IMG/VR virus record: IMGVR_UViG_3300031994_000010
Coordinates: 32,001-96,000 of that record
DNA length: 64,000 nt
Reading direction: 5' to 3' (one strand)
Source: a virus
Taxonomy: Duplodnaviria; Caudoviricetes
This document shows positions 36,353-56,885 of this stretch, piece by piece. The position numbers were made by a program, and so were the translations under genes. The first letter of the stretch is position 1, and each line of letters opens with the position of its first letter. Under the pieces are notes generated by a model. The model did not search any database and was not told the origin of the DNA. It saw only the letters and a program-made list of their open reading frames with translations.

Positions 36353-36735
36353 CACTCTTTACTACGATTTGCTTCCAAAATGGGCAATCCTGCCTCAGTC
36401 GGGATATAAATAATACGATTATTAGTACTAGCATTTTGCTGACGCACCCATAGATATTGAATATAAGTGGGAGTCAGACTACCGTTTTCAATTTTAATGG
36501 CTTCAGCAGCTCCTTTAGCTCTTTCTACCTCTGCTTGTGCATTAAGTTTTTCACTTTCCAAGTTAGCTTGCGCCTCAGCTATTTTAATTCGTCTGTTTTG
36601 CTCAGCTTTAGCTAATTCTGCTTTACCAGACATTTCTTGTTGCCATACCTTATAATAAGGACATCCTACGAACACTCCTAAAAGTATAAGAACTGCACAA
36701 CAAAAACTTCCAAAATAATATCCAAATTTATTCAT
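36352..36735 (-). CDS. Membrane protein with SPFH/band-7-like coiled-coil C-terminus
   Basis: N-terminal TM helix followed by AE-rich helix and LTPTYIQYLW. Confidence 0.7.
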   Translation of the reverse strand: MNKFGYYFGSFCCAVLILLGVFVGCPYYKVWQQEMSGKAELAKAEQNRRIKIAEAQANLESEKLNAQAEVERAKGAAEAIKIENGSLTPTYIQYLWVRQQNASTNNRIIYIPTEAGLPILEANRSKE

Positions 36736-37115
36736 TACTCAAAATATTTATTAATTACTTTACCGTCTCTATAAACCTCATAAATATATCCATCTACCCA
36801 GTCCGCATACTCATCATCTGTGATGTCATCCCTATCTTCGAATTTGGGATCAAATTCGCCTGTAGTTATATTTTTCCAAGTATAACTAGCTTCCTTTGTC
36901 CCTTCCCAATATTTCCAACCAAGATCGTCTGCATCCATAGAACCACATTCAAATGCTCCATCAAATTCTGCATAAACAATTGATAGATGATCATAATATG
37001 GATCTTTTTTAAGATAGGTTTTAATTGCTTCTAAACTATCTGCTATTACACATGGAAAAGAAGTGGTGCCATAATCAGTATCAGTACTCACCAAAAGTGC
37101 CCAAATTTTAGTCAT
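36735..37115 (-). CDS. Hypothetical acidic protein
   Basis: Intact ORF coupled to its neighbours. Confidence 0.7.
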   Translation of the reverse strand: MTKIWALLVSTDTDYGTTSFPCVIADSLEAIKTYLKKDPYYDHLSIVYAEFDGAFECGSMDADDLGWKYWEGTKEASYTWKNITTGEFDPKFEDRDDITDDEYADWVDGYIYEVYRDGKVINKYFE

Positions 37116-37632
37116 AATATTTTTTAATTAAATCGATTACTATAGGAGAAACATAGTTACCTATATTCTCTCTACTTTTAACTTTCTCTCTTATAAGTGA
37201 AGATGATATAGAATTTTCTGGTCTATCTACTATTAAGAAGTTATAATCTTCTATTATTTTTCCACCATGCATCCAATTTGGAATATCTTTAATAGTATCT
37301 TCTCCACATAAAACAAATACTTCATCATTACAATATTTATTCTTTAAAGCGTGGAGAGTAGCATAACTATAATAAGGAGGAATGAGAAATTTTTCTATAT
37401 TATCAATTCCTATTTTAATCCATTGTTTAGGAAAAAATTCTTCTTGAAGCTGTGCTCTAATTATATAAATTCTTTTATTAAAATCAAGAACTTTCTCCTT
37501 TTTCCAAGGATTTTGCATTGTTGGAACAATAATCACTCTATCCATTTTAAAGTCATTTAAAGCAGTTTTCACCACCTCTAAATGGCCCTTATGAAATGGA
37601 TTAAATGAACCTAAATATAATGCAATTTTCAT
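37108..37632 (-). CDS. nadD: Nicotinate-nucleotide adenylyltransferase
   Basis: GSFNPFHKGH (HxGH), NPWK, GED...W and ISSSLIR motifs. Confidence 0.92.
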   Translation of the reverse strand: MKIALYLGSFNPFHKGHLEVVKTALNDFKMDRVIIVPTMQNPWKKEKVLDFNKRIYIIRAQLQEEFFPKQWIKIGIDNIEKFLIPPYYSYATLHALKNKYCNDEVFVLCGEDTIKDIPNWMHGGKIIEDYNFLIVDRPENSISSSLIREKVKSRENIGNYVSPIVIDLIKKYYD

Positions 37633-37761
37633 TTAAAAAAGATTTACTGGAAAACCTATAGAAGCAAGTTTTACCTTTTCTTCTAATTTTTTAATTTTTT
37701 CATCTTGTTCTTTTTGATGTTTCTCCAATTCTTCAATCCTTTTAAGAATTAATTGTTCCAT
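37633..37761 (-). CDS. Small coiled-coil protein (42 aa)
   Basis: Hand-translated MEQLILKRIEELEK...; abuts the nadD start. Confidence 0.5.
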   Translation of the reverse strand: MEQLILKRIEELEKHQKEQDEKIKKLEEKVKLASIGFPVNLF

Positions 37762-37767
37762 AAGTCA

Positions 37768-37947
37768 TCAGGAATTTAAAAAAATTTTATTTTCACAATC
37801 TGGACAAATTATACATTGACGAATTTCATCGTCTCCTAATAATGAAGGAACAATTTCTTCTTGAATATCCTCTTGTTCATATTGTAATTTAGCCATACAA
37901 TTAGGACAAGTAACTTTCTTTACTCCATGTTTTAATACTTTAATCAT
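37768..37947 (-). CDS. Small zinc-ribbon protein (59 aa)
   Basis: CPNC...CPDC; ATGA overlap with the nadE stop. Confidence 0.65.
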   Translation of the reverse strand: MIKVLKHGVKKVTCPNCMAKLQYEQEDIQEEIVPSLLGDDEIRQCIICPDCENKIFLNS

Positions 37948-38798
37948 AATCCTAATTCCTCTCTAGTTGGTTTAATTGGTAACTCTTTTCTTTTATAAAC
38001 AGTATTCTGGTGAAGTAACATTACTTTATCAACTCCTTGTTCGTTATAAGAATCAATAAGTCGAGTATATGCATCTCTAGCTTCTTTAGAACCAATAGCA
38101 TAAGAAGTGTAATATACTGTTTTTAACACATCATCAACTTGCTCATAGTTATCTAATCCAAACTGTTCACAATCTGAATTAGAAACACCATTACCATCTG
38201 TTGGAATTAACTTTATAGAAGCCAACAATGCTTGATATTTGTCAGATTGATTCTGTTCTTCTAATAAAAATTTAGCCAATTCGTATATTTCAGTCTTCCA
38301 AAGATAGTGTAAACCTAAGTTTATATCACAGGGACTATCACCGTGTATAGTATAAAAACCTAAATTCCACTCAGTGAAGTTATCATTATCAAGAACTACT
38401 CCTTTATGAAGTGATGCAAGATTATAAAGATACATCATTCTAAGACGAGCTTTAATATTTCCAGCTTGAATGTTATTTATAACACCCTCACACTCTTCAA
38501 ACTCATCTACAATAGAAAGATAAGTTTCATCTAAATATACAACTTTATAATTAGTACAAAAAGCCTTTCCTACTAAATCCGCAACATCACATTCAGACTG
38601 TTTATTAGTTCCTGTCGGTAAACTTCTACCTATTAAAGGAATATTAAGTTCTTTACATACCGGAGAAGCAATAGCACAGCTGACTGTGCTATCAATTCCT
38701 CCAGAAATGCCGACACAAATTGACTGTAAATGATTATTTCTTATATATTTGGATAACCATTTACGAGAATTTTCTACAAATATATTATAATTGATCAT
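37944..38798 (-). CDS. nadE: NH3-dependent NAD+ synthetase
   Basis: GISGGIDS PP-loop, GNIKARLRM, GFYTIHGD and KTEIYELA motifs. No glutaminase domain. Confidence 0.93.
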   Translation of the reverse strand: MINYNIFVENSRKWLSKYIRNNHLQSICVGISGGIDSTVSCAIASPVCKELNIPLIGRSLPTGTNKQSECDVADLVGKAFCTNYKVVYLDETYLSIVDEFEECEGVINNIQAGNIKARLRMMYLYNLASLHKGVVLDNDNFTEWNLGFYTIHGDSPCDINLGLHYLWKTEIYELAKFLLEEQNQSDKYQALLASIKLIPTDGNGVSNSDCEQFGLDNYEQVDDVLKTVYYTSYAIGSKEARDAYTRLIDSYNEQGVDKVMLLHQNTVYKRKELPIKPTREELGL

Positions 38799-38988
38799 CG
38801 TGAGTTGTAGTACTTGTTACTTTCCAATTATTTGGATTATAAGTAAACTTATCTGAGTAAATAATCTGTGGATAATAAGGATAAATATATGGCTGACATC
38901 CTTTAATATCTTTTAATAACTGAAGACTCTCCTCAAGAGTTAAATGTCCAGTTTTATAAGCATTTAAAATAATTTCTTCACTAGTCAT
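38785..38988 (-). CDS. Hypothetical protein
   Basis: 67 aa ORF overlapping both neighbours. Confidence 0.6.
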   Translation of the reverse strand: MTSEEIILNAYKTGHLTLEESLQLLKDIKGCQPYIYPYYPQIIYSDKFTYNPNNWKVTSTTTHDDQL

Positions 38989-39553
38989 AATTTTCTATTC
39001 TTCTAAAAATTTCATTTTCCGGGGAGTCGAAGTTTTCTACCCAAGTTCTAAAAAATACTTTACAATCTAAATCGGCATTAGCATAATCAAGAATTTCTAA
39101 TAAATTATTATCAATGCTATAATTACAATCATCAAATTTATCTATAAAAGCATAGAGTCTATTGCTAGATAAATATTTAATGTCTTCTTGCCAACCTCCC
39201 CAGTAAAGTTCTTCTATAGCTTTCCAATCCTTTTTTGATTTCGGACTAAAGGTTATTCCATCAATATTGGGTAATTTTTCAAGTTTTCTAAGATATAATA
39301 AACAAGCATATCCAGAAGTAAACACATAAATATTTTTAATATTTTCTCTACTTCTTAGAGCATTTACTATTTTATCAAGTTTTTCTCCAAGTAAAAATGG
39401 ATCTCCTCCAGTTAAACAAATTGTATTTACAGAAGAAAGCTCCTCCTCCGTAGGAAGAGGAACTTTTTCTATATCATAATTCTTATTACAACAAAGTGGA
39501 CAGTTATTTGTACACTTATTAGTAACAAATAGATGCATTGTATCTACTTTCAT
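38981..39553 (-). CDS. Radical SAM protein
   Basis: CTNNCPLC (CxxxCxxC) and LTGGDP motifs. Ends in TAG immediately followed by TGA. Confidence 0.85.
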   Translation of the reverse strand: MKVDTMHLFVTNKCTNNCPLCCNKNYDIEKVPLPTEEELSSVNTICLTGGDPFLLGEKLDKIVNALRSRENIKNIYVFTSGYACLLYLRKLEKLPNIDGITFSPKSKKDWKAIEELYWGGWQEDIKYLSSNRLYAFIDKFDDCNYSIDNNLLEILDYANADLDCKVFFRTWVENFDSPENEIFRRIENYD

Positions 39554-40713
39554 ATCCCTAATTGATATTTAGCAATCTCAAATTCTTTATCATCACCTAA
39601 ATGTTTTCCTAAATCATCAGAAATTTTAATACACTTTCTCCATTCCTGATTTTGGTTTATTTTACATTTAGATAGCTTCATAACAATATTAGAAGGTTTA
39701 AACCCACAGTCATTAGTAAGATTTGTACCAATGCCGGCGCTGACCCGAATCCTGCCTTTGAAGTAATTGGCAATATCAAGATACTTATTAAAATCAAGAG
39801 CATTGCTAAATACGATAGTTTTTGTCGTTGGGTCAATACCCAACTCTTGATACCGTTTAATAACCTCATTACCAATTTTATATTCATCACCAGAATCCTG
39901 TCTTACACCATCAAATAATTTTGCAAATTTTAAAGACATATTCTTAAGACCAACTTTAGAAGTATAAGTATCCATTAAGAATATTCCTAAATTTCCATCA
40001 TAAGTACGAACCCAATCTCTCATTCCGAGATAATTAGCTTCCTGATAACCCCAAATAGCCCCATGAAACATAATCCATTCATGCGGGAAGGTTCCAATAG
40101 GAGTCATATTATAGTGCATAGCAAAATATACATTAGAAGTACCAACACAATTAATTGGGCATCTATTATGTAACCGCTTTATTATACTCTCATGTACTGC
40201 TGATGAAAATCTTCTACGGGTTCCAAACTCAGAGAATTTTAATCCATTTTCTATTGCAATATTTATCTTTTTATCTAATTTAGAAAGCATTATTTGTTCA
40301 CTATAAACATTTCCTTTCCATTTATTAGTAAGTTCAGATACTATTGAAAGAATTGGAACTTCATATAAGGTTACCTTATAAAGAAAGTCAGTAACTTCGA
40401 TATGTAGATGACCATTATTGTCAATAGTAGCATATATTTTTAATGGCTCATACCTAAAATTTTCCAACCATTCCCAATAAACCTGAGGAATATAAGGAAT
40501 ATGTTCTACACACCAATAAAATTCATCAACTTTTAAATGTAATTGCATAAGTTTGTTTAACTCAAGATTTAAAGCAGTTAAAAACTCTTCGCTATAAACA
40601 GTATTATCTCTATCAGTAAAAGTAAAAGTTCCTACTGCTTCTGGATAGAGTTTCATATAAGCATATGATGTACTAAACTTATACAAATCGTTGTCTAAAA
40701 TTGAAAGTATCAT
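39550..40713 (-). CDS. pncB: Nicotinate phosphoribosyltransferase
   Basis: DNDLYK, EFGTRRRFS, GTSNV, GTFPHEW, DTY, GVRQDSGD and GIGTNLTND motifs. Confidence 0.93.
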   Translation of the reverse strand: MILSILDNDLYKFSTSYAYMKLYPEAVGTFTFTDRDNTVYSEEFLTALNLELNKLMQLHLKVDEFYWCVEHIPYIPQVYWEWLENFRYEPLKIYATIDNNGHLHIEVTDFLYKVTLYEVPILSIVSELTNKWKGNVYSEQIMLSKLDKKINIAIENGLKFSEFGTRRRFSSAVHESIIKRLHNRCPINCVGTSNVYFAMHYNMTPIGTFPHEWIMFHGAIWGYQEANYLGMRDWVRTYDGNLGIFLMDTYTSKVGLKNMSLKFAKLFDGVRQDSGDEYKIGNEVIKRYQELGIDPTTKTIVFSNALDFNKYLDIANYFKGRIRVSAGIGTNLTNDCGFKPSNIVMKLSKCKINQNQEWRKCIKISDDLGKHLGDDKEFEIAKYQLGI

Positions 40714-41198
40714 TTTAAATAATTATTAATAAGTTCTTTATGATTAAATGCCCATTCGTAAGAATTTATTTCCTTAGTAGATATCCATTTTATTTTAGAA
40801 ACTTCATCTAATTCAGAGTTTTCAAATGAAAGTACAATGTCCTCAATCCCTCTAATATAACTACAAAGTCTAAATGTAATATTTTGTCGTTTATCTGAAT
40901 TAGGATTAGAATTAACTGAAATTAAATCCCAATCATTTGGGTTAATCTCTACTCCAGTTTCTTCATACACCTCCCTAGTGGCTGCTTCTTCAATAGTTTC
41001 GTCGAAGTCTACATAACCACAGGGTAAACACCATTTATTAACAAACTCTGGATCTGGAGTTCCTTTACCTCGCTGTTCTACTAAAATGTATTCATTATTA
41101 TCTTTATCATATCCGAATACAAAAGTTACAACAGCAACAGAACGGGAAATCCAATATTCCCGTCCTGTTCTATTATCAATTATTGAAAAATTTTTCAT
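40710..41198 (-). CDS. Nudix hydrolase (possible ADP-ribose pyrophosphatase)
   Basis: Nudix box GYVDFDETIEEAATREVYEETG and C-terminal AFNH. Start taken at MKNF; the track start is 41219. Confidence 0.88.
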   Translation of the reverse strand: MKNFSIIDNRTGREYWISRSVAVVTFVFGYDKDNNEYILVEQRGKGTPDPEFVNKWCLPCGYVDFDETIEEAATREVYEETGVEINPNDWDLISVNSNPNSDKRQNITFRLCSYIRGIEDIVLSFENSELDEVSKIKWISTKEINSYEWAFNHKELINNYLK

Positions 41199-41781
41199 AT
41201 TTTGGAATATCGTTATCAATCATATATTTTCTTAAAGTACTTCCGCCATCTATAGATGCTGTTCCATCTACATAAACGGATAAATTATGCAATTTATGCC
41301 TTACCTTAACAAGTTGTTTTAAGGTTTCAAGAACACAAATGTCTCCAGCTAATCCACATACAACTACATCTTCTCTATTAGATAGAATATAACCTACATC
41401 ATCATTAGAGATGTTTAAAGAAACACAATCATAAAATTCTTCTTTTATACCATTAAATACAGCAAATTCTTCAACATAACGCTGAGTTCCTTTAACTATA
41501 TATTCTGCATATAGATTGTTTTTAGTAATTGCATCGCTAATTGGACTATAAATTCTAGCGCCATTAGTACTTGCAACACAATGTTCAGGAAATTGTCCAC
41601 CAAAGTCTTTAAAAGAACAATGATTTCCAGGATGCCAGTCTTGTGAAACTAAACAATTACCAACTTCTCCTGAATTAATGAGTTTTGCTATGTTATCAAG
41701 AGCTTTTGTACCCCCATTAACTGGAAGTTTACCTCCCTCAATAAAATCATATTGAGGATCTACAATAATTAATGTAATCAT
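41176..41781 (-). CDS. pncA: Nicotinamidase
   Basis: VDPQYDF, DWHPGNH, PEHC, KG and GLAGDICV isochorismatase-family catalytic and metal-binding residues. Confidence 0.92.
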   Translation of the reverse strand: MITLIIVDPQYDFIEGGKLPVNGGTKALDNIAKLINSGEVGNCLVSQDWHPGNHCSFKDFGGQFPEHCVASTNGARIYSPISDAITKNNLYAEYIVKGTQRYVEEFAVFNGIKEEFYDCVSLNISNDDVGYILSNREDVVVCGLAGDICVLETLKQLVKVRHKLHNLSVYVDGTASIDGGSTLRKYMIDNDIPKYEKFFNN

Positions 41782-42470
41782 ACTTCTAAATATAAAGGTT
41801 CAAATACTTTATTATATTGCTCATTTAATAATGACACACAAGCAGTCTGTGTCCCTGTATAATCTATCAGATTATGGTCACAAGTGTGAAGATGTCCAAA
41901 GAAATGGTATTTAGGATGTTTACTTTTTAATACTTCAGCTAATTCTGGATTACCAATATGAGAACCATCTGCCCACCACACTGATTCATCAAGAACTACA
42001 TCACTTCTACCATAAGCAGCATCATGAGTAATTAGAAAATCTAAATTATCCGGAATCTTCTCGAATTGTGTAAGTTCATACTCTGGGCTTTCCATAAATG
42101 CCCAATTTCCAAATATATGACAAAGTGGAGAGCCCCATATTGTATATATTTTACCAGATTCTTCATCTAAATATTCAGCACCTTCATTATAAAGAATAGT
42201 AATTCTAGTTCCAAGTAGAGCTTCTTTGACTTCTTTTTCTAATTTTTCCAAAATAAAATCGTGATTCCCTCCAACCATATATATTTGGTCAGCAGACTGA
42301 GACTGACACCAAGGTATAAAGAATTTCTTAAACCAACTAAATGACTGAGGAATATTTCTTTGCATACGAAGTGGAACAATATCTCCACATATAAATAAAA
42401 TATCCACAGGCTCTATGGATAAATTTTCAAATTGCCCATGGATATCACTCATTGCACAAATTTTAATCAT
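41778..42470 (-). CDS. Calcineurin-like metallophosphoesterase
   Basis: SDIHG, CGD, GNHD, TH and GHLH motifs. Confidence 0.88.
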
Positions 42471-42705
42471 AATCTACAGTATATTTAGGTAAATTTGTAA
42501 TATAACAACATTTTTTATATTTTTTACCACTACCGCAAGGACAAAGGTCATTCATTCCTATTTTAGGAGATATTCTTCTCCAAGGAGTAGTAGCTGCTTT
42601 TATAGCATGCTGTCCTTCTGGACTATCTATATATTTGTGAAGAGCTTCAGCTTGTTCTTGTTGAATTTCTTCTTCACTCTTTAAAGGGATTTTTGATATT
42701 TGCAT
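42463..42705 (-). CDS. SEC-C motif protein
   Basis: [20 protein letters not shown]. Confidence 0.85.
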
Positions 42706-43368: not shown

Positions 43369-43604
43369 GAATCTACATCGGTTAAGTCAATCCATTCATT
43401 AGTTTTCCAAATCTTAACTTTAAATCCAATTCCTAACCCTCCTGAAAAATAAAAACAATAGTCCATACTTCCATATTGTTCATAAAGTTTATCTACTTGT
43501 TTTTGTTGCTGTTCAGTGAGAGCAAACATGAGAGTAGGGGGAAATTTCATTATTACATGTTTGGTAGTATCTACCAATTTCCACTTAGTTAGCCACTTCC
43601 ACAT
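43362..43604 (-). CDS. Hypothetical protein
   Basis: Track ORF; start uncertain (43604 or 43634). Confidence 0.6.
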   Translation of the reverse strand: MWKWLTKWKLVDTTKHVIMKFPPTLMFALTEQQQKQVDKLYEQYGSMDYCFYFSGGLGIGFKVKIWKTNEWIDLTDVDSW

Positions 43605-44526
43605 TTTCCGTACATAATTCATTCCAAATTCCATATTTATCAGCTTCTTTTGCCATTAAACCTGTTAATTCTACCATATTAGGATGCGGAGCACCTGTTT
43701 TTCCAAAGTATCTCAAATCGAAGAAATGCCTCCAGTCTGACGCATATGCTGTATGAATTATTTCAGTAGCAGTACATAAAGGAAGAACTTCTCTTGCTTG
43801 TTGAGGCTGCCATCCCTTACTTATAAGATTCATATAATGATGTTCTGCAACATCTAAGGAATCTAACCATACGTTTAATTCTTCGGCCTGCTCTTTTGTA
43901 AAATAATCACCTGGTCTAACAGAAATCATAACTTCAAAATTTGGATCATTTTCTGGTTGTATTCTATAGTTTATTCCATCATACCAATAGGCATCACCTT
44001 CAGGTATGTTTAACCAACTAGGAATACAGAAAGTTACTTCTTTACCAAACTTATCCTTACTATAATTACAGTATCTAGTCGATTGCTCTGCGATACTATT
44101 TACGCGATGACGATTAAGTTCTCTAGTAACTCCAATAGATGTAACCACTCTAAAAGTATATCTCCTTTTGTGATATTCAGTTGGTTCACAGATATATTTT
44201 AAGTCTTTATCCCAATTATGTTCTTTGATAACACGTAAATTTGTAGTAATATATCTAAATCTTCTTATTTTAGAATACGGATTTAATAAATATTTGAAGA
44301 ATTTAAGTATATGCCACCATTTAATTATTAAATATACAGTACCATGCTCAAGCATAGCAAGATGATTTGACTTAATCATTCTATCAACAAATGGTTTAGC
44401 ACTATCTTCTGTTATTTTATCCGTAGATTTGTAGCAAGTCCTGCCTGCTAGCTCAATTTGTTTATAAACTCCTTCTAAGCCAGGCTGCTGTAGAAGGAGT
44501 TCTGCTTTTGGTTTAATTAGTTTCAT
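43585..44526 (-). CDS. thyX: Flavin-dependent thymidylate synthase
   Basis: RELNRHRVNSIAEQSTRY signature, H..MLEH and AREVLP. Confidence 0.92.
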   Translation of the reverse strand: MKLIKPKAELLLQQPGLEGVYKQIELAGRTCYKSTDKITEDSAKPFVDRMIKSNHLAMLEHGTVYLIIKWWHILKFFKYLLNPYSKIRRFRYITTNLRVIKEHNWDKDLKYICEPTEYHKRRYTFRVVTSIGVTRELNRHRVNSIAEQSTRYCNYSKDKFGKEVTFCIPSWLNIPEGDAYWYDGINYRIQPENDPNFEVMISVRPGDYFTKEQAEELNVWLDSLDVAEHHYMNLISKGWQPQQAREVLPLCTATEIIHTAYASDWRHFFDLRYFGKTGAPHPNMVELTGLMAKEADKYGIWNELCTENVEVAN

Positions 44527-51358: not shown

Positions 51359-52312
51359 TTAAAATTTTCCTTCGTTAGGTTGTAAAACAGTTAATCCTAA
51401 ATCTCTATACATTTTAACTACCTTTTGAGAATCTTCTAAAACAAAATCTACAAAGTACTTATCTTTAACTTCATTTTCATAGAGTATTCGTTTTATTTCT
51501 TCTCCTTTTGTATAGTTACCGAAAGGCCTCATTAATAACTTACTATATGGAATTTCATATTTATTTAACCAGGCTTCAGTTCCAGTTCTACAGGATTCAT
51601 CTCTACCAGTTATAATAATTACATTATTATTAAACTTATAGGGATTTGTTCCGTAGTTTGGATTAGCGTATTGTTTAACTAAATTAACAATAGGCATATT
51701 TGGAGTATCATTAATTAGTTGTTCATTAACTCCATTTCCCCAAAATTCTCTTTCTTGTGTATTAAAACATAAAGTAGCATCCATATCGACGATTATGCAA
51801 TGCGGTAAAGAAGAATCTTGTACAACTTGGTTAGACAACATATTTTGTATAGAGTTTTGAATGATGTAGGTTCTATATCTCTTCCATTGTTGTCTAATTA
51901 CTTTCTCTCCAATAGGATTTTCTCTTTTAGAATCTCGTTCAATACAGACTTCTACAGGAGTATCAAATAATTTATATTTAAGTTGATATAAGTTAACACT
52001 TTCACTGTCATCTGAAGAATTATTCTCTTTAATAAGTTTCTTATATTCTTCTTGATGCTTGGGATTAAGATTAGACATATTATCTATAACTATATCGTAA
52101 CCCATATACATAGCTTGAGCAAGAGCATAGTCAAACATATCTTTTACCAACTGTTCTCGTTTATCGGGAACCCAATATTTACCCAACATACATCTAATGT
52201 CATCGTAATTTAATCTTATACGATGCTCTGGATCTTCTTCTGCCCATTGTTTAGACCAATAGGTTTTACCGCTTCCACTAATCCCCAGTGCTAGTATTAT
52301 TTCTTTCATCAT
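51359..52312 (-). CDS. Polynucleotide 5'-kinase/3'-phosphatase (T4 PseT-like)
   Basis: GISGSGKT P-loop kinase domain followed by a HAD domain (DMDAT, TGR, LED). Confidence 0.9.
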   Translation of the reverse strand: MMKEIILALGISGSGKTYWSKQWAEEDPEHRIRLNYDDIRCMLGKYWVPDKREQLVKDMFDYALAQAMYMGYDIVIDNMSNLNPKHQEEYKKLIKENNSSDDSESVNLYQLKYKLFDTPVEVCIERDSKRENPIGEKVIRQQWKRYRTYIIQNSIQNMLSNQVVQDSSLPHCIIVDMDATLCFNTQEREFWGNGVNEQLINDTPNMPIVNLVKQYANPNYGTNPYKFNNNVIIITGRDESCRTGTEAWLNKYEIPYSKLLMRPFGNYTKGEEIKRILYENEVKDKYFVDFVLEDSQKVVKMYRDLGLTVLQPNEGKF

Positions 52313-52628
52313 AAATTATATCAGGTTCACATCCTTCTGGAAAATAATCTTTTAATTCTGTTTCTTCTATTTCTTCGATACTCACTGTACAATCTCCGTC
52401 CCAATTTTCTCTAGCCTCGTCCCAAGCTTCTTGTTCTTCTTCTTCAGAATCAAACTCTTCATCCTCAATGTAAAGAAGATGACTCCAATTAACCCATAAA
52501 TCTTCAATTATCTCATCATAAACACCTGAATCAATTAACGCTTGTTCAGGGTTTTCTTCTGAATAGGCACCATAATATTCTTCAGTTCCACAAAATGGGG
52601 AACTAGCAGTAATTAACCAACATTTCAT
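52278..52628 (-). CDS. Hypothetical highly acidic protein
   Basis: Track ORF. Ends TAG, with TAA four codons further on. Confidence 0.65.
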   Translation of the reverse strand: MKCWLITASSPFCGTEEYYGAYSEENPEQALIDSGVYDEIIEDLWVNWSHLLYIEDEEFDSEEEEQEAWDEARENWDGDCTVSIEEIEETELKDYFPEGCEPDIIYDERNNTSTGD

Positions 52629-52915
52629 TTTCCAAAGTCCTTAAAAACATTATTCAATTCTACATTAATAGGAGTATAAGAACTATATGAAACAGATTTG
52701 ACTACTTTAGACATTCTTTCAACATAATCTGAATCAATAATTTCTTTAGCTTTAGTTTTCTTATCTAATTTATATGGAATATAATAATTATTAAATTCGT
52801 GATTTATGAAAAGTTCTTTCAAAGTTCTCCATCCATACCAATGTTTAAGTTGTGGATAATACCAGTGATTACCGTTACCATCCACAACTTCTTTAATTCT
52901 ATATTTAGGATACAT
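52625..52915 (-). CDS. Hypothetical protein
   Basis: Track ORF. Confidence 0.65.
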   Translation of the reverse strand: MYPKYRIKEVVDGNGNHWYYPQLKHWYGWRTLKELFINHEFNNYYIPYKLDKKTKAKEIIDSDYVERMSKVVKSVSYSSYTPINVELNNVFKDFGK

Positions 52916-54287
52916 CTTCTATATTAATTTCACCATTATCAAGAGCTTTCTGTTCTTTATTTAAGAAATTAAAGCATTTTAGCTTAAAAGCATGAGCTAA
53001 GTTGTCCTCAATTCTAATAACAACACCTTCATGAGGCACATTGTTAGCACATTCAGGAGAACGTTCCTCCATATAGAAGTTTTTATCATTAGCAAGTCTT
53101 TCCAAGAAGTTTTCGTTCCAATGCTCTTCAGTATTTAGATCTGGATACAAATCCGAAGCATAACCATAATAGAGTTCAGTGACTGGCCTCAACCCATTCT
53201 TTTTACACCAATTCTGAACAGCTCTTGCAGAGAACTCTTGAACTACTCCATCAATATTAGTATAAGTTATTCTATAAATATAGATTTTATAATGGATTCC
53301 TTCAGTATAAGATTCTCCTTCCTTTATTGGCCTACATCCATAATCATATTCCTTTTGAATATATTTATTATCCGTAGTATAACCTACTATTTCATAGTAA
53401 AGAGATAATCCCTTTGTTATATATGGACGAAGATGTTTATCAGCAATTACTCTAAAGTCATCAGAACCATAATATCCATTATTTACCTTAGGATTGATAT
53501 ATTGATTCTTAATAACTTTTCTTGAAGCATATATATGATCATAGACTGGGAAAGTATACTTAGTAAGCCATTTAGCTATCTTTTCTTTCCAGGTTAGAGG
53601 CTTATTACATAAAATATAAGCGGATATAGCGCTCGTGCCGTGCCATTTGCTCGATATTTGAATTATATCATTAGGTTTGATAACAGTTGGATTCTTACGA
53701 AGCATTTCTGTCTCATAATGGAATCTAAATTGATTTTCTATAATTCTATCGAACTTTTTTAGATTCTTATCATATCTACTATGTCGATCATACAGATGTG
53801 AACCACCTTGTTGCCTTACAATATACTTCCTACATACCCAAAAAGATTTATTACCATCGGTAATTTCATCAAATTCAAGTCCATCTTCAGGTTCTGGTAA
53901 AGATTGATTAACAGAATCTACAACCCAATTATTAAAGTGTTCATAGGGAAGTAAAAATCCTTCAGATGGATAACCTTTTAACTTAATAGCCTTAACTCTA
54001 CCATTTTTACCGAAGAAACCAGGTTTAGCTGTAGCATCTTTATTTAATTCAGGTTTAGCATATAAATTAAGATACTCTAATAGCTCTGAGTGAATCTGAC
54101 TCATAGTTGGAAAATATACATAAAATCCTTCAGGTTCATTTATTCCTACGGATATAGAATATCCTCCAATATGTGCTACTTTCATTTTAGTAACTTCTGG
54201 GTTAGGATGCTTAGAAAATTCAGTAATATGAACTACCTTAGCTAAATAATTGATATTAGCTTTTTTACTTATATTAAGCTTTAACAT
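52905..54287 (-). CDS. RNA ligase (Rnl2-like nucleotidyltransferase with N-terminal extension)
   Basis: KWHGTS (motif I), YEIVG, EGVVIR and FKLK motifs. Confidence 0.82.
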   Translation of the reverse strand: MLKLNISKKANINYLAKVVHITEFSKHPNPEVTKMKVAHIGGYSISVGINEPEGFYVYFPTMSQIHSELLEYLNLYAKPELNKDATAKPGFFGKNGRVKAIKLKGYPSEGFLLPYEHFNNWVVDSVNQSLPEPEDGLEFDEITDGNKSFWVCRKYIVRQQGGSHLYDRHSRYDKNLKKFDRIIENQFRFHYETEMLRKNPTVIKPNDIIQISSKWHGTSAISAYILCNKPLTWKEKIAKWLTKYTFPVYDHIYASRKVIKNQYINPKVNNGYYGSDDFRVIADKHLRPYITKGLSLYYEIVGYTTDNKYIQKEYDYGCRPIKEGESYTEGIHYKIYIYRITYTNIDGVVQEFSARAVQNWCKKNGLRPVTELYYGYASDLYPDLNTEEHWNENFLERLANDKNFYMEERSPECANNVPHEGVVIRIEDNLAHAFKLKCFNFLNKEQKALDNGEINIEDVS

Positions 54288-55443: not shown

Positions 55444-55635
55444 TTAAACGTATTCAGCATCCTTAAATTGAATATCACCATCTAATACAAAGAACCCTTG
55501 TTTATGTAAGGGTTCTAATTGCTTACTAATAGTGGCTTTATAAACATTAAGCCTCTCTTCTTCTTTTATATTATCGGGGACTTCTACCTTTCCCCGAATA
55601 ATTTTAGTAATTGGACAAGTATATTCTATTATCAT
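55444..55635 (-). CDS. Hypothetical protein
   Basis: Track ORF with ATGA overlap. Confidence 0.6.
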   Translation of the reverse strand: MIIEYTCPITKIIRGKVEVPDNIKEEERLNVYKATISKQLEPLHKQGFFVLDGDIQFKDAEYV

Positions 55636-56885
55636 TTAAATTCGTTAGCATCTCTAAAAGCAATCAATGCTGGCTGTAGTGGGACTCCTGTTACTTCATC
55701 TCCACCATTAGAATAATAGAAATATTTAATCGTTGCAAACTTTCCTTTATATTTAGAATTAAAGTTATCTACATATTCTTCTTTAGTAGCTCTATCTCCA
55801 ACAGGTTTAGCTTTAAAAGTATTACCATATGGAGTTTTACATATGAATACCATATCCTCAGTACCTCTTAATCCTAATTCATAAGATTCTACTAAGAATT
55901 CTGCATCCATGTAATTCTTTACTTTAATCATAGAATATGTACGAGACCCAAATCCATATACTGCATCAGGATCTCTTAACACTAATCCTTCCCAACCTTC
56001 TTCTACATAAGCATTATGTAAAGAATTAACTTCTTCTTCACCAATAACTATCTCTTGTGGAACTAGAAGCATTTGAAGCTCATTTTTATTCCACTCTACA
56101 TATGGATCAAAATCTCTTAATTGTAATTCTTTTTTAATGGCTAACATAATTTTATTCCTAACTTTAAAAGAAATATTAGGAACCATTATATCATACATAT
56201 AAAAACATAACTGGTCACAATCAACAGCATTCTTTTCCATACGACAGGCTCCACTTATTCTCTGAAGAGGCCATCCATGTTTATAAGCTTCTCCATCTAG
56301 TACAATTTTAGGATGTTTTTTAAAGAACTCTATAAATTTTTCATTTTGAATAAAGTGTTGCATTGAATAGTCATAATGTCCACCTCCTCTAGAGGCAGTT
56401 CTTATCATTCTTCCATCCCAATAGAAAGACATTCGACATCCGTCAATTTTTCTACTTGCAAACCAATAGTCTTTAGTAGCTATAACGTCAGATTTACACT
56501 GTTTTAATGGTTTAGCTAACATATGTTTAGCAAATCCATTAGCATCAGTTTTATATTCTGGAAGCATTTGGTTTAATTCTTCTAAAGCATAACTTTCTGG
56601 GTCACGCTCTATTTCTTTATAACCTTTATCTTTATACTCCTTACATATAGCATTAAATCTAAGTAGACATTGTGCATATGGATCTCTAGTTGAAAATCCT
56701 TTATCAATAATTAAAGGTGGTTGAATTACTCTTTTGCCTTTGTATTGATAAGAACACCTACTGATGGTGTAAGTGTTCTTATCGGTTTGTTCAAAATGAG
56801 TTTCTATACAACGAATTTTTCCATTAGAATCTCTATTTATAAAATAGCATTGATGTTTTTGTTGAGATTCAAATAAATCATTCAT
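55632..56885 (-). CDS. ATP-dependent DNA ligase
   Basis: KIDGCR, LDGE, YD, EGLVLR and KVK motifs with a C-terminal OB domain. Confidence 0.92.
   Translation of the reverse strand: MNDLFESQQKHQCYFINRDSNGKIRCIETHFEQTDKNTYTISRCSYQYKGKRVIQPPLIIDKGFSTRDPYAQCLLRFNAICKEYKDKGYKEIERDPESYALEELNQMLPEYKTDANGFAKHMLAKPLKQCKSDVIATKDYWFASRKIDGCRMSFYWDGRMIRTASRGGGHYDYSMQHFIQNEKFIEFFKKHPKIVLDGEAYKHGWPLQRISGACRMEKNAVDCDQLCFYMYDIMVPNISFKVRNKIMLAIKKELQLRDFDPYVEWNKNELQMLLVPQEIVIGEEEVNSLHNAYVEEGWEGLVLRDPDAVYGFGSRTYSMIKVKNYMDAEFLVESYELGLRGTEDMVFICKTPYGNTFKAKPVGDRATKEEYVDNFNSKYKGKFATIKYFYYSNGGDEVTGVPLQPALIAFRDANEFK

Follow-up and report, generated by a model that had tools for sequence, protein, structure and literature searches.

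A compact cassette of NAD+ biosynthesis genes was found at positions 37108-41781, minus strand, of a 64,000-nucleotide stretch of phage DNA (the window, to which all positions refer unless stated otherwise). The window comprises bases 32001-96000 of a 174,440-bp IMG/VR record (IMGVR_UViG_3300031994_000010, estimated to be 96% complete). Its source is a TAG-recoded crAss-like phage of ruminant (sheep, cattle, and goat) guts that lies below jumbo size. The cassette encodes proteins of the PncA, PncB, NadD, and NadE families together with a Nudix hydrolase, and we assign its pathway with high confidence as the deamidating salvage of nicotinamide to NAD+. The explanation that best fits the data, and that we consider probable, is that the cassette would rebuild NAD+ by this complete route, with the Nudix enzyme acting on ADP-ribose, and would so keep NAD+ available during infection, including infection of hosts defended by NAD+-cleaving enzymes (NADases).

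In reading direction the cassette consists of PncA, the Nudix hydrolase, PncB, a small radical S-adenosylmethionine (SAM) protein, a 67-amino acid open reading frame (ORF), NadE, a 59-amino acid zinc-ribbon protein, a 42-amino acid ORF, and NadD. ORF calling placed these genes in a chain of co-oriented minus-strand genes that extends from 42470 to 36352 with no break. Genes in the chain overlap by 1-14 nucleotides or abut, the exceptions being a 6-nucleotide gap between the 59- and 42-amino acid ORFs and a 23-nucleotide overlap between PncA and the Nudix hydrolase. The run at 37108-41781 is a translationally coupled, accessory cassette. An earlier reading of the DNA letters (the original prediction) had described a co-oriented, overlapping run with intact catalytic motifs that supplies all four enzymes of a deamidating route from nicotinamide to NAD+. 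Both parts of that description agree with the ORF calls, family scores, motifs, and gene content reported here.

PncA (201 amino acids, 41176-41781) scores 37.1 bits against the Pfam Isochorismatase family (cut-off 27). All seven solved structures that matched the protein are nicotinamidases (one carries a generic name in its deposition); 1ILW matched best (E = 3e-17), and the others include 3R2J, 3PL1, 2WT9, and 2H0R. The catalytic triad can be read directly from the sequence as VDPQYDF (Asp), KGT (Lys), and GDICV (Cys), and the metal site as DWHPGNH and EHCV. Ten of 15 phage homologues retain both the Asp-Lys-Cys triad and the DWHxxxH/H metal site.

PncB (387 amino acids, 39550-40713) exceeds the cut-offs of both NF003704 (412.8 bits, cut-off 379) and TIGR01514 (383.3 bits, cut-off 269.6). 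Its best solved-structure match is the nicotinate phosphoribosyltransferase 2IM5 (E = 7e-102), to which it aligns from end to end and which we take to come from a species of the Bacteroidota. The 174-kb genome has no other NAPRTase-family gene, and PncB scores as a nicotinate-specific enzyme.

NadE (284 amino acids, 37944-38798) scores 119.5 bits against the Pfam NAD_synthase family and 107.2 bits against TIGR00552 (cut-off 63.7). The SGGIDS P-loop is present as GISGGIDS and there is no glutaminase domain, as in an NH3-dependent NAD+ synthetase; the best solved matches are all NH3-dependent NadE structures. The NadE motifs are kept in 13 homologues. The nicotinate-mononucleotide adenylyltransferase NadD (174 amino acids, 37108-37632) scores 63.1 bits against Pfam CTP_transf_like, and 17 of its 18 best solved-structure matches are NadD enzymes, with 1KAM ranked first. 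Its GSFNPFHKGH and ISSSLIR motifs are both present and are kept in 12 homologues. A nicotinamidase, PncB, NadD, and NadE, the four enzymes of PncA plus Preiss-Handler salvage, are thus all present by sequence.

The Nudix hydrolase is encoded by an ORF of 169 codons that opens at a TTG (41219). The most likely start is the ATG at 41198, giving a protein of 162 amino acids (40710-41198). The protein scores 63.2 bits against Pfam NUDIX (cut-off 21.1) and contains a perfect Nudix box, G-x5-E-x7-REVxEExGV, that is kept in 11 homologues.

The conservation of the cassette was assessed at 15 loci obtained from an IMG/VR scan anchored on PncB, to which were added GenBank MT835470, three European Nucleotide Archive (ENA) contigs, and one fragment from a metagenome-assembled genome (MAG). 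PncA, PncB, NadE, NadD, and the Nudix hydrolase lie within a few kilobases of each other in at least 12 distinct phage contigs whose PncB proteins are 53-80% identical to that of the window. Across the phage homologues, the five enzymes keep their catalytic motifs. The gene arrangement is far beyond chance: clusters of these five enzyme genes recur in at least 12 phage contigs besides the window. The Nudix gene precedes PncB in the close relatives and follows NadD in the distant ones. Its position thus shifts while the set recurs, which argues for selection on the gene set and not on its order; the pattern of gene content indicates that the five NAD genes are selected as a set.

A second comparison was anchored on the neighboring thymidylate synthase gene thyX and gave 80 relatives, mostly crAss-like contigs of ∼90-100 kb. 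Only one of the 80 (L075, a 185-kb contig) has NAD genes within 10 kb of the anchor. In three others (L025, L045, and L068) the backbone order ThyX, Metallophos (200 amino acids), Metallophos (230 amino acids), and YqeY is present with no NAD gene, and in L025 and L068 YqeY follows almost directly after the second Metallophos gene with nothing between them. In L001, L011, and L075 the PncA-PncB-NadE-NadD-Nudix set is inserted at exactly this site between the second Metallophos gene and YqeY. By these comparisons the NAD genes form an accessory cassette whose site in the backbone is fixed. The cassette was confined to relatives with large genomes (117-212 kb); the ∼97-kb crAss-like contigs lacked it. 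In the window the gene immediately upstream of PncA encodes the 230-amino acid metallophosphoesterase (41778-42470; Pfam Metallophos, 52.5 bits). We considered the two upstream metallophosphoesterases as possible members of an ADP-ribose/NAD cassette and rejected them; since they are present in relatives that lack the NAD genes, they are backbone genes that flank the cassette.

Three ENA contigs, L105, L106, and L107, share an identical PncB protein and differ nearby. A DUF723 endonuclease gene precedes NadE in L106 (8183-10369) and L107 (8183-10367), where a 25-codon copy of the beginning of NadE flanks it, and L105 lacks both this gene and NadE. An IS1595-type transposase gene follows NadD in all three. 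The cassette region is a mobile-gene hot spot. In L105 a host enzyme presumably substitutes for the missing NadE.

The order of reactions from PncA through PncB and NadD to NadE is established for deamidating salvage, and we infer the activities and substrate preferences of the phage enzymes from their families and motifs. PncA would convert nicotinamide to nicotinate and NH3, and PncB would join nicotinate to host-made phosphoribosyl pyrophosphate (PRPP), with ATP, to give nicotinate mononucleotide (NaMN). NadD would adenylylate NaMN with ATP to nicotinate adenine dinucleotide (NaAD), which NadE would convert to NAD+ using ATP and NH3. The Nudix hydrolase would cleave ADP-ribose to AMP and ribose 5-phosphate. 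Together the enzymes would rebuild NAD+ from both products of NAD+ glycohydrolysis, with PRPP supplied by the host. A profile search of the whole 174-kb genome detected no PRPP synthetase (Pribosyltran_N domain), whereas the same search was positive in 14 of 14 control genomes. The route must therefore depend on the host for PRPP; the original prediction had noted the lack of a PRPP synthase in the window, and the observation extends to the entire genome. The benefit of the cassette would be the maintenance of NAD+ in the infected cell, including in hosts with SIR2-, TIR-, or similar NAD+-depleting defenses.

Several features favor a role in counter-defense. PncA and the Nudix hydrolase match exactly the two products of an NADase, and the patchy distribution at a fixed site is as often seen with counter-defense genes. 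Phage NAD+ synthesis modules, namely NARP2 and NARP3, overcome NADase defenses (10.1101/2024.02.11.579819; PMC13464706). That counter-defense is the main selective benefit of the cassette is nevertheless a suggestion from gene content to which we give slightly less than even credence. More tentative again is the fuller proposal that the cassette represents a fourth phage NAD+ reconstitution system that would recycle both NADase products, with ribose 5-phosphate from the Nudix reaction passing through host Prs to PRPP for PncB, and that would allow large gut phages, crAss-like ones included, to overcome NAD+ depletion of the SIR2/TIR type in the Bacteroidota and in other anaerobes. Two further ideas of the original prediction, that NadE reuses the ammonia set free by PncA and that deamidated intermediates evade NADases, are speculative, and the sequence speaks neither for nor against them.

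A number of observations weigh against these readings. PncA falls well under the NCBIfam equivalog cut-off (49 versus 174) and NadD falls just below that of TIGR00482 (100.4 versus 112.45). MutT, NudJ, NUDT1, and NudC are close behind the best matches in profile and fold scoring of the Nudix protein, and if the enzyme also cleaves NAD(H), it would counteract the pathway. The route costs PRPP and three ATP and needs host Prs, and is slower and dearer than NARP1. The absence of NadE from L105 indicates that host enzymes can complete the route, so that the cassette may do no more than raise flux. Its neighbors are genes of nucleotide metabolism (ThyX, NrdD/NrdG, and dUTPase), as would be expected of a general auxiliary metabolic module. 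An anti-defense role for this family of cassettes is a plausible idea drawn from sequence.

The nucleotide-metabolism surroundings bear on the strongest rival explanation, in which the cassette is a general auxiliary metabolic module that provides more NAD(P) for the replication of a large phage, for example for the host NAD-dependent ligase or for the NAD(P)H demand of ThyX, with no specific link to NADase defense. This explanation would also account for the restriction of the cassette to the 117-212-kb relatives and for the dispensability of NadE in one strain, and Li et al. 2024 (PMC11662467), in the text of their article, frame comparable clusters mainly as a means of independent NAD+ synthesis. 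Against it, the two products of NAD+ glycohydrolysis would be precisely the substrates of PncA and an ADP-ribose-type Nudix hydrolase. Moreover, none of the NAD consumers searched for (among them NAD-dependent ligase, Sir2, and Macro domain) was found in the genome. A supply of NAD+ for a phage NAD-dependent ligase was rejected for the same reason, as the genome has no such ligase and the phage ligase is ATP-dependent. We regard a purely auxiliary function as unlikely, although deserving of serious consideration, and it is compatible with a function in counter-defense.

The contribution of ADP-ribose recycling depends on the substrate of the Nudix hydrolase. With the family profile, the best solved matches were 2FML (NrtR-like) and 3GZ8 (the Nudix domain of NrtR), with 2QJT (NadM-Nudix) close behind. 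An AlphaFold model of the protein (mean predicted local distance difference test score, 91.6) gave the same two structures as the top Foldseek matches, the latter of which was solved with ADP-ribose, and a NadM-Nudix ADP-ribose pyrophosphatase ranked 11th. In comparison with the NrtR regulators, the phage protein retains the catalytic box and has no DNA-binding domain. A proline lies 16 residues downstream of the Nudix box, a position that we take to be a marker of ADP-ribose pyrophosphatases. The link to ADP-ribose drawn in the original prediction accords with these profile and predicted-fold matches, and the protein is probably an ADP-ribose pyrophosphatase producing AMP and ribose 5-phosphate.

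Alternatively, the Nudix protein could be an enzyme only loosely tied to salvage, acting in NAD(H) trimming, in the removal of NAD caps from RNA, in the degradation of an ADP-ribose-derived immune signal, or in nucleotide sanitizing. The top NCBIfam match is MutT (35 bits, far under the MutT cut-off), NudC, NUDT1, and NudJ are among the sequence and fold matches, and the position of the gene in the cassette varies. Against such roles, the gene co-occurs with PncB in nearly all relatives, the best matches in both sequence and fold are ADP-ribose-binding NrtR and NadM-Nudix domains, and the downstream proline fits the presumed ADP-ribose pyrophosphatase marker. We consider a substrate other than ADP-ribose to be rather improbable.

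A Francisella-type reaction order, in which NadE would serve as a nicotinamide mononucleotide (NMN) synthetase that uses NaMN, and NMN would then be adenylylated by the NadD-like enzyme without any formation of NaAD, is very improbable: the best solved match of NadE is 3FIU, which we take to be the Francisella tularensis NadE characterized as an NMN synthetase, and NadD is short and scores below its equivalog cut-off, but the margin of 3FIU over ordinary NadE structures is small (80 bits versus 68 for the next) and the adenylyltransferase fits NadD far better than it fits the NadM or NadR types.

The preferred reading, NAD+ reconstitution by the deamidating route, was compared with the known phage systems. 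NARP2 (Osterman et al., 10.1101/2024.02.11.579819; KVP40 NadV/NatV) consists of NadV/Nampt and an NMN adenylyltransferase-Nudix protein. It resembles the cassette in making NAD+ from nicotinamide and PRPP and in its association with a Nudix domain, and it has been shown experimentally to defeat NAD-depleting defenses. However, NARP2 is a two-enzyme amidated route via NMN, whereas the only phosphoribosyltransferase here scores as a nicotinate-specific PncB, and the route needs PncA and NadE. NARP1 and its variant NARP1-AP comprise Adps and Namat, without or with the Macro phosphatase Adpp (10.64898/2026.01.28.702374), and like the cassette they handle both NADase products, ADP-ribose and nicotinamide. 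NARP1 re-ligates ADP-ribose via ADPR-PP, whereas the cassette would hydrolyze ADP-ribose, and the genome has neither a Prs-like Adps nor a Macro domain. The outlines of NARP1 and NARP2 given in the original prediction correspond to these papers.

NARP3 (PnuC and NadR), a phage NAD+-restoring module that overcomes Sir2-HerA, was published in August 2026 (PMC13464706). It imports nicotinamide riboside, whereas the genome studied here is without PnuC (NadR was not searched for separately). Searches of the 174-kb genome found no NadV, PnuC, Macro domain, Sir2, or NAD-dependent ligase. As the genome has no NadV, no Adps-like Prs, and no PnuC, the cassette is none of NARP1, NARP2, or NARP3. The same four enzyme families, with an NrtR-like Nudix fold, are found in bacterial PncA-PncB-NadD-NadE salvage associated with NrtR or an ADP-ribose pyrophosphatase. 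In bacteria, nadD and nadE are housekeeping genes and the genes of the route are usually dispersed, whereas in the phage all are compacted into one cassette.

The closest precedent lies in animal-gut jumbo phages. According to the text of Li et al. 2024 (Microbiome; PMC11662467), 174 of 668 such phages carry complete salvage or Preiss-Handler pathways; the article describes pncB-nadD-nadE clusters (for example in Kuafu_71) and phage pncA, and proposes that they counter NAD+ depletion. The animal-gut habitat and the clustering of pncB, nadD, and nadE are shared with the present phage, and the evidence in that text is likewise from sequence. The phage differs from those described there in its genome of 174 kb, below the 200-kb jumbo threshold, in being crAss-like, and in its recoding of TAG. 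Its cassette differs from the clusters in that text in including PncA and the Nudix hydrolase, in starting from nicotinamide, and in being accessory at a fixed backbone site. The exact set of PncA, PncB, NadD, and NadE with a Nudix hydrolase was not found in the text of the article, supplementary tables aside. Section 3.6 of the survey by Iyer et al. 2022 (PMC9503650) covers only NadV, NadM, and NadR, and a literature search found no paper linking crAss-like phages to these NAD enzymes.

The original prediction had presented the cassette as an undescribed third route. This view must be given up, because NARP3 exists and because Preiss-Handler clusters and pncA are already reported in the text of Li et al. 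As to whether the set itself had been described before, that text contains the pncB-nadD-nadE clusters and the phage pncA; the exact combination with the Nudix hydrolase was not found in it. The cassette is real and intact, its kind has already been catalogued from sequence, and the idea of counter-defense is not original here.

NAD+ depletion is among the commonest bacterial anti-phage strategies, and of the three phage NAD+-restoring pathways shown experimentally none is deamidating. The cassette is an abundant, conserved, and compact candidate for counter-defense by the nicotinate route in crAss-like phages, whose defense and counter-defense biology is poorly known. Natural variants provide ready controls, namely the relatives without the cassette, the strain without NadE, and the loci with the Nudix gene in different positions.

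Related genes were found in several other settings. A megablast search of the cluster against GenBank phages gave no match. The cultured jumbo phage Atu_ph07 has a PncA-like gene, a gene annotated as ADP-ribose pyrophosphatase, and PncB together, with NadE elsewhere in its genome. 'Acinetobacter phage MD-2021a', which carries pncB, was considered as a further phage example and dropped because the flanking genes are bacterial housekeeping genes. The single hit of a scan of genome contigs was a 5.1-kb contig (JAFZDT010000057.1) in an Erysipelotrichaceae MAG bin from water-buffalo rectum; it carries PncA-PncB-NadE-NadD, with a PncB 63% identical to that of the window. It was rejected as evidence for the host, since it is probably phage DNA that was binned with the MAG in error.

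The remaining genes within the run are small. The radical SAM protein (190 amino acids, 38981-39553) has the CxxxCxxC motif at residues 14-21, scores below the cut-off of Pfam Radical_SAM (24.9 versus 29.5), and matches phrog_31524; its nearest Atlas clusters are small radical SAM families dominated by viruses. The gene occurs at this position only in the window genome and is absent from the position in all relatives, with weak homologues ∼5 kb upstream in L010 and L013. Its stop codon, TAG (38981-38983), is followed directly by TGA, so that read-through would add one residue. The original prediction had counted the radical SAM gene in the module. As it holds this position in the window genome alone and belongs to a virus-dominated family, we rejected it as a member of the pathway and treat it as an unrelated accessory insertion specific to this genome; the five enzyme genes of the predicted run stand.

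The 67-amino acid ORF (38785-38988) and the 42-amino acid ORF (37633-37761), the latter a predicted coiled coil, have no family match in Pfam, PHROG, or NCBIfam. Weak homologues of the 67-amino acid ORF follow PncB in L004, L005, and L105-L107. The 59-amino acid protein (37768-37947) is a CxxC...CxxC zinc ribbon that matches phrog_2834 (E = 5e-10) and is kept between NadE and NadD in the close relatives L005-L008, L018, L021, and L105-L107.

The cassette lies in the minus-strand (early/replication) gene array of the phage, which is closed by a strong terminator-like hairpin (35855-35817, minus strand) whose 17-bp stem includes 9 G-C pairs and precedes a run of T. A promoter scan performed no better than on shuffled sequence (63 found versus 57 expected). 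The family-A DNA polymerase has crAss-like Bacteroides phages as its closest named relatives (∼41% identity). The plus-strand late arm (positions 1-33000) is open only when TAG is read as a sense codon, which yields giant ORFs of 1663, 638, 2932, 3575, 353, and 1614 amino acids with 8-98 in-frame TAG codons each. The minus-strand arm, including all of the cassette genes, reads in the standard code. Of its 37 genes between 36 and 64 kb only two end in TAG, one of them being the radical SAM gene. Standard ARAGORN detected 14 tRNAs, at 116-125 kb of the genome, with no CUA anticodon among them. A relaxed, intron-allowing ARAGORN search, which returned many obvious false positives, gave a candidate CTA-anticodon tRNA with an 8-nucleotide intron at genome positions 102537-102636, outside the window. 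It is possible that this candidate is an amber suppressor.

Several studies of sheep, cattle, and goat guts yielded metagenomes with DNA nearly identical to that of the window, and public metagenomes contain more than 120 PncB clusters at 75-99% identity, the longest contigs reaching ∼180 kb. RNA-library contigs of two studies cover the cassette (99-100% identity), and those of one run (X13) cover the minus-strand arm only, leaving out the late arm. As these are assembled contigs, for which DNA carry-over is possible and gaps are uninformative, no conclusion on transcription was drawn. In two RNA-library runs of one sheep-gut sample, contigs skip most of the cassette, passing from position 36732 to 40464 by way of seven other letters; this join may represent a deletion variant or a related phage.

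Besides ThyX (43585-44526), NrdD/NrdG, and dUTPase, the minus-strand arm carries three genes for nucleic acid end processing and joining at 51359-54287 and 55632-56885. A Pnkp-like polynucleotide kinase and an RNA ligase, which lie close together, are a candidate tRNA-repair pair; the third is an ATP-dependent DNA ligase. An 80-amino acid ORF with a SEC-C zinc-binding motif (42463-42705) lies between the two backbone metallophosphoesterase genes and is kept in several relatives.

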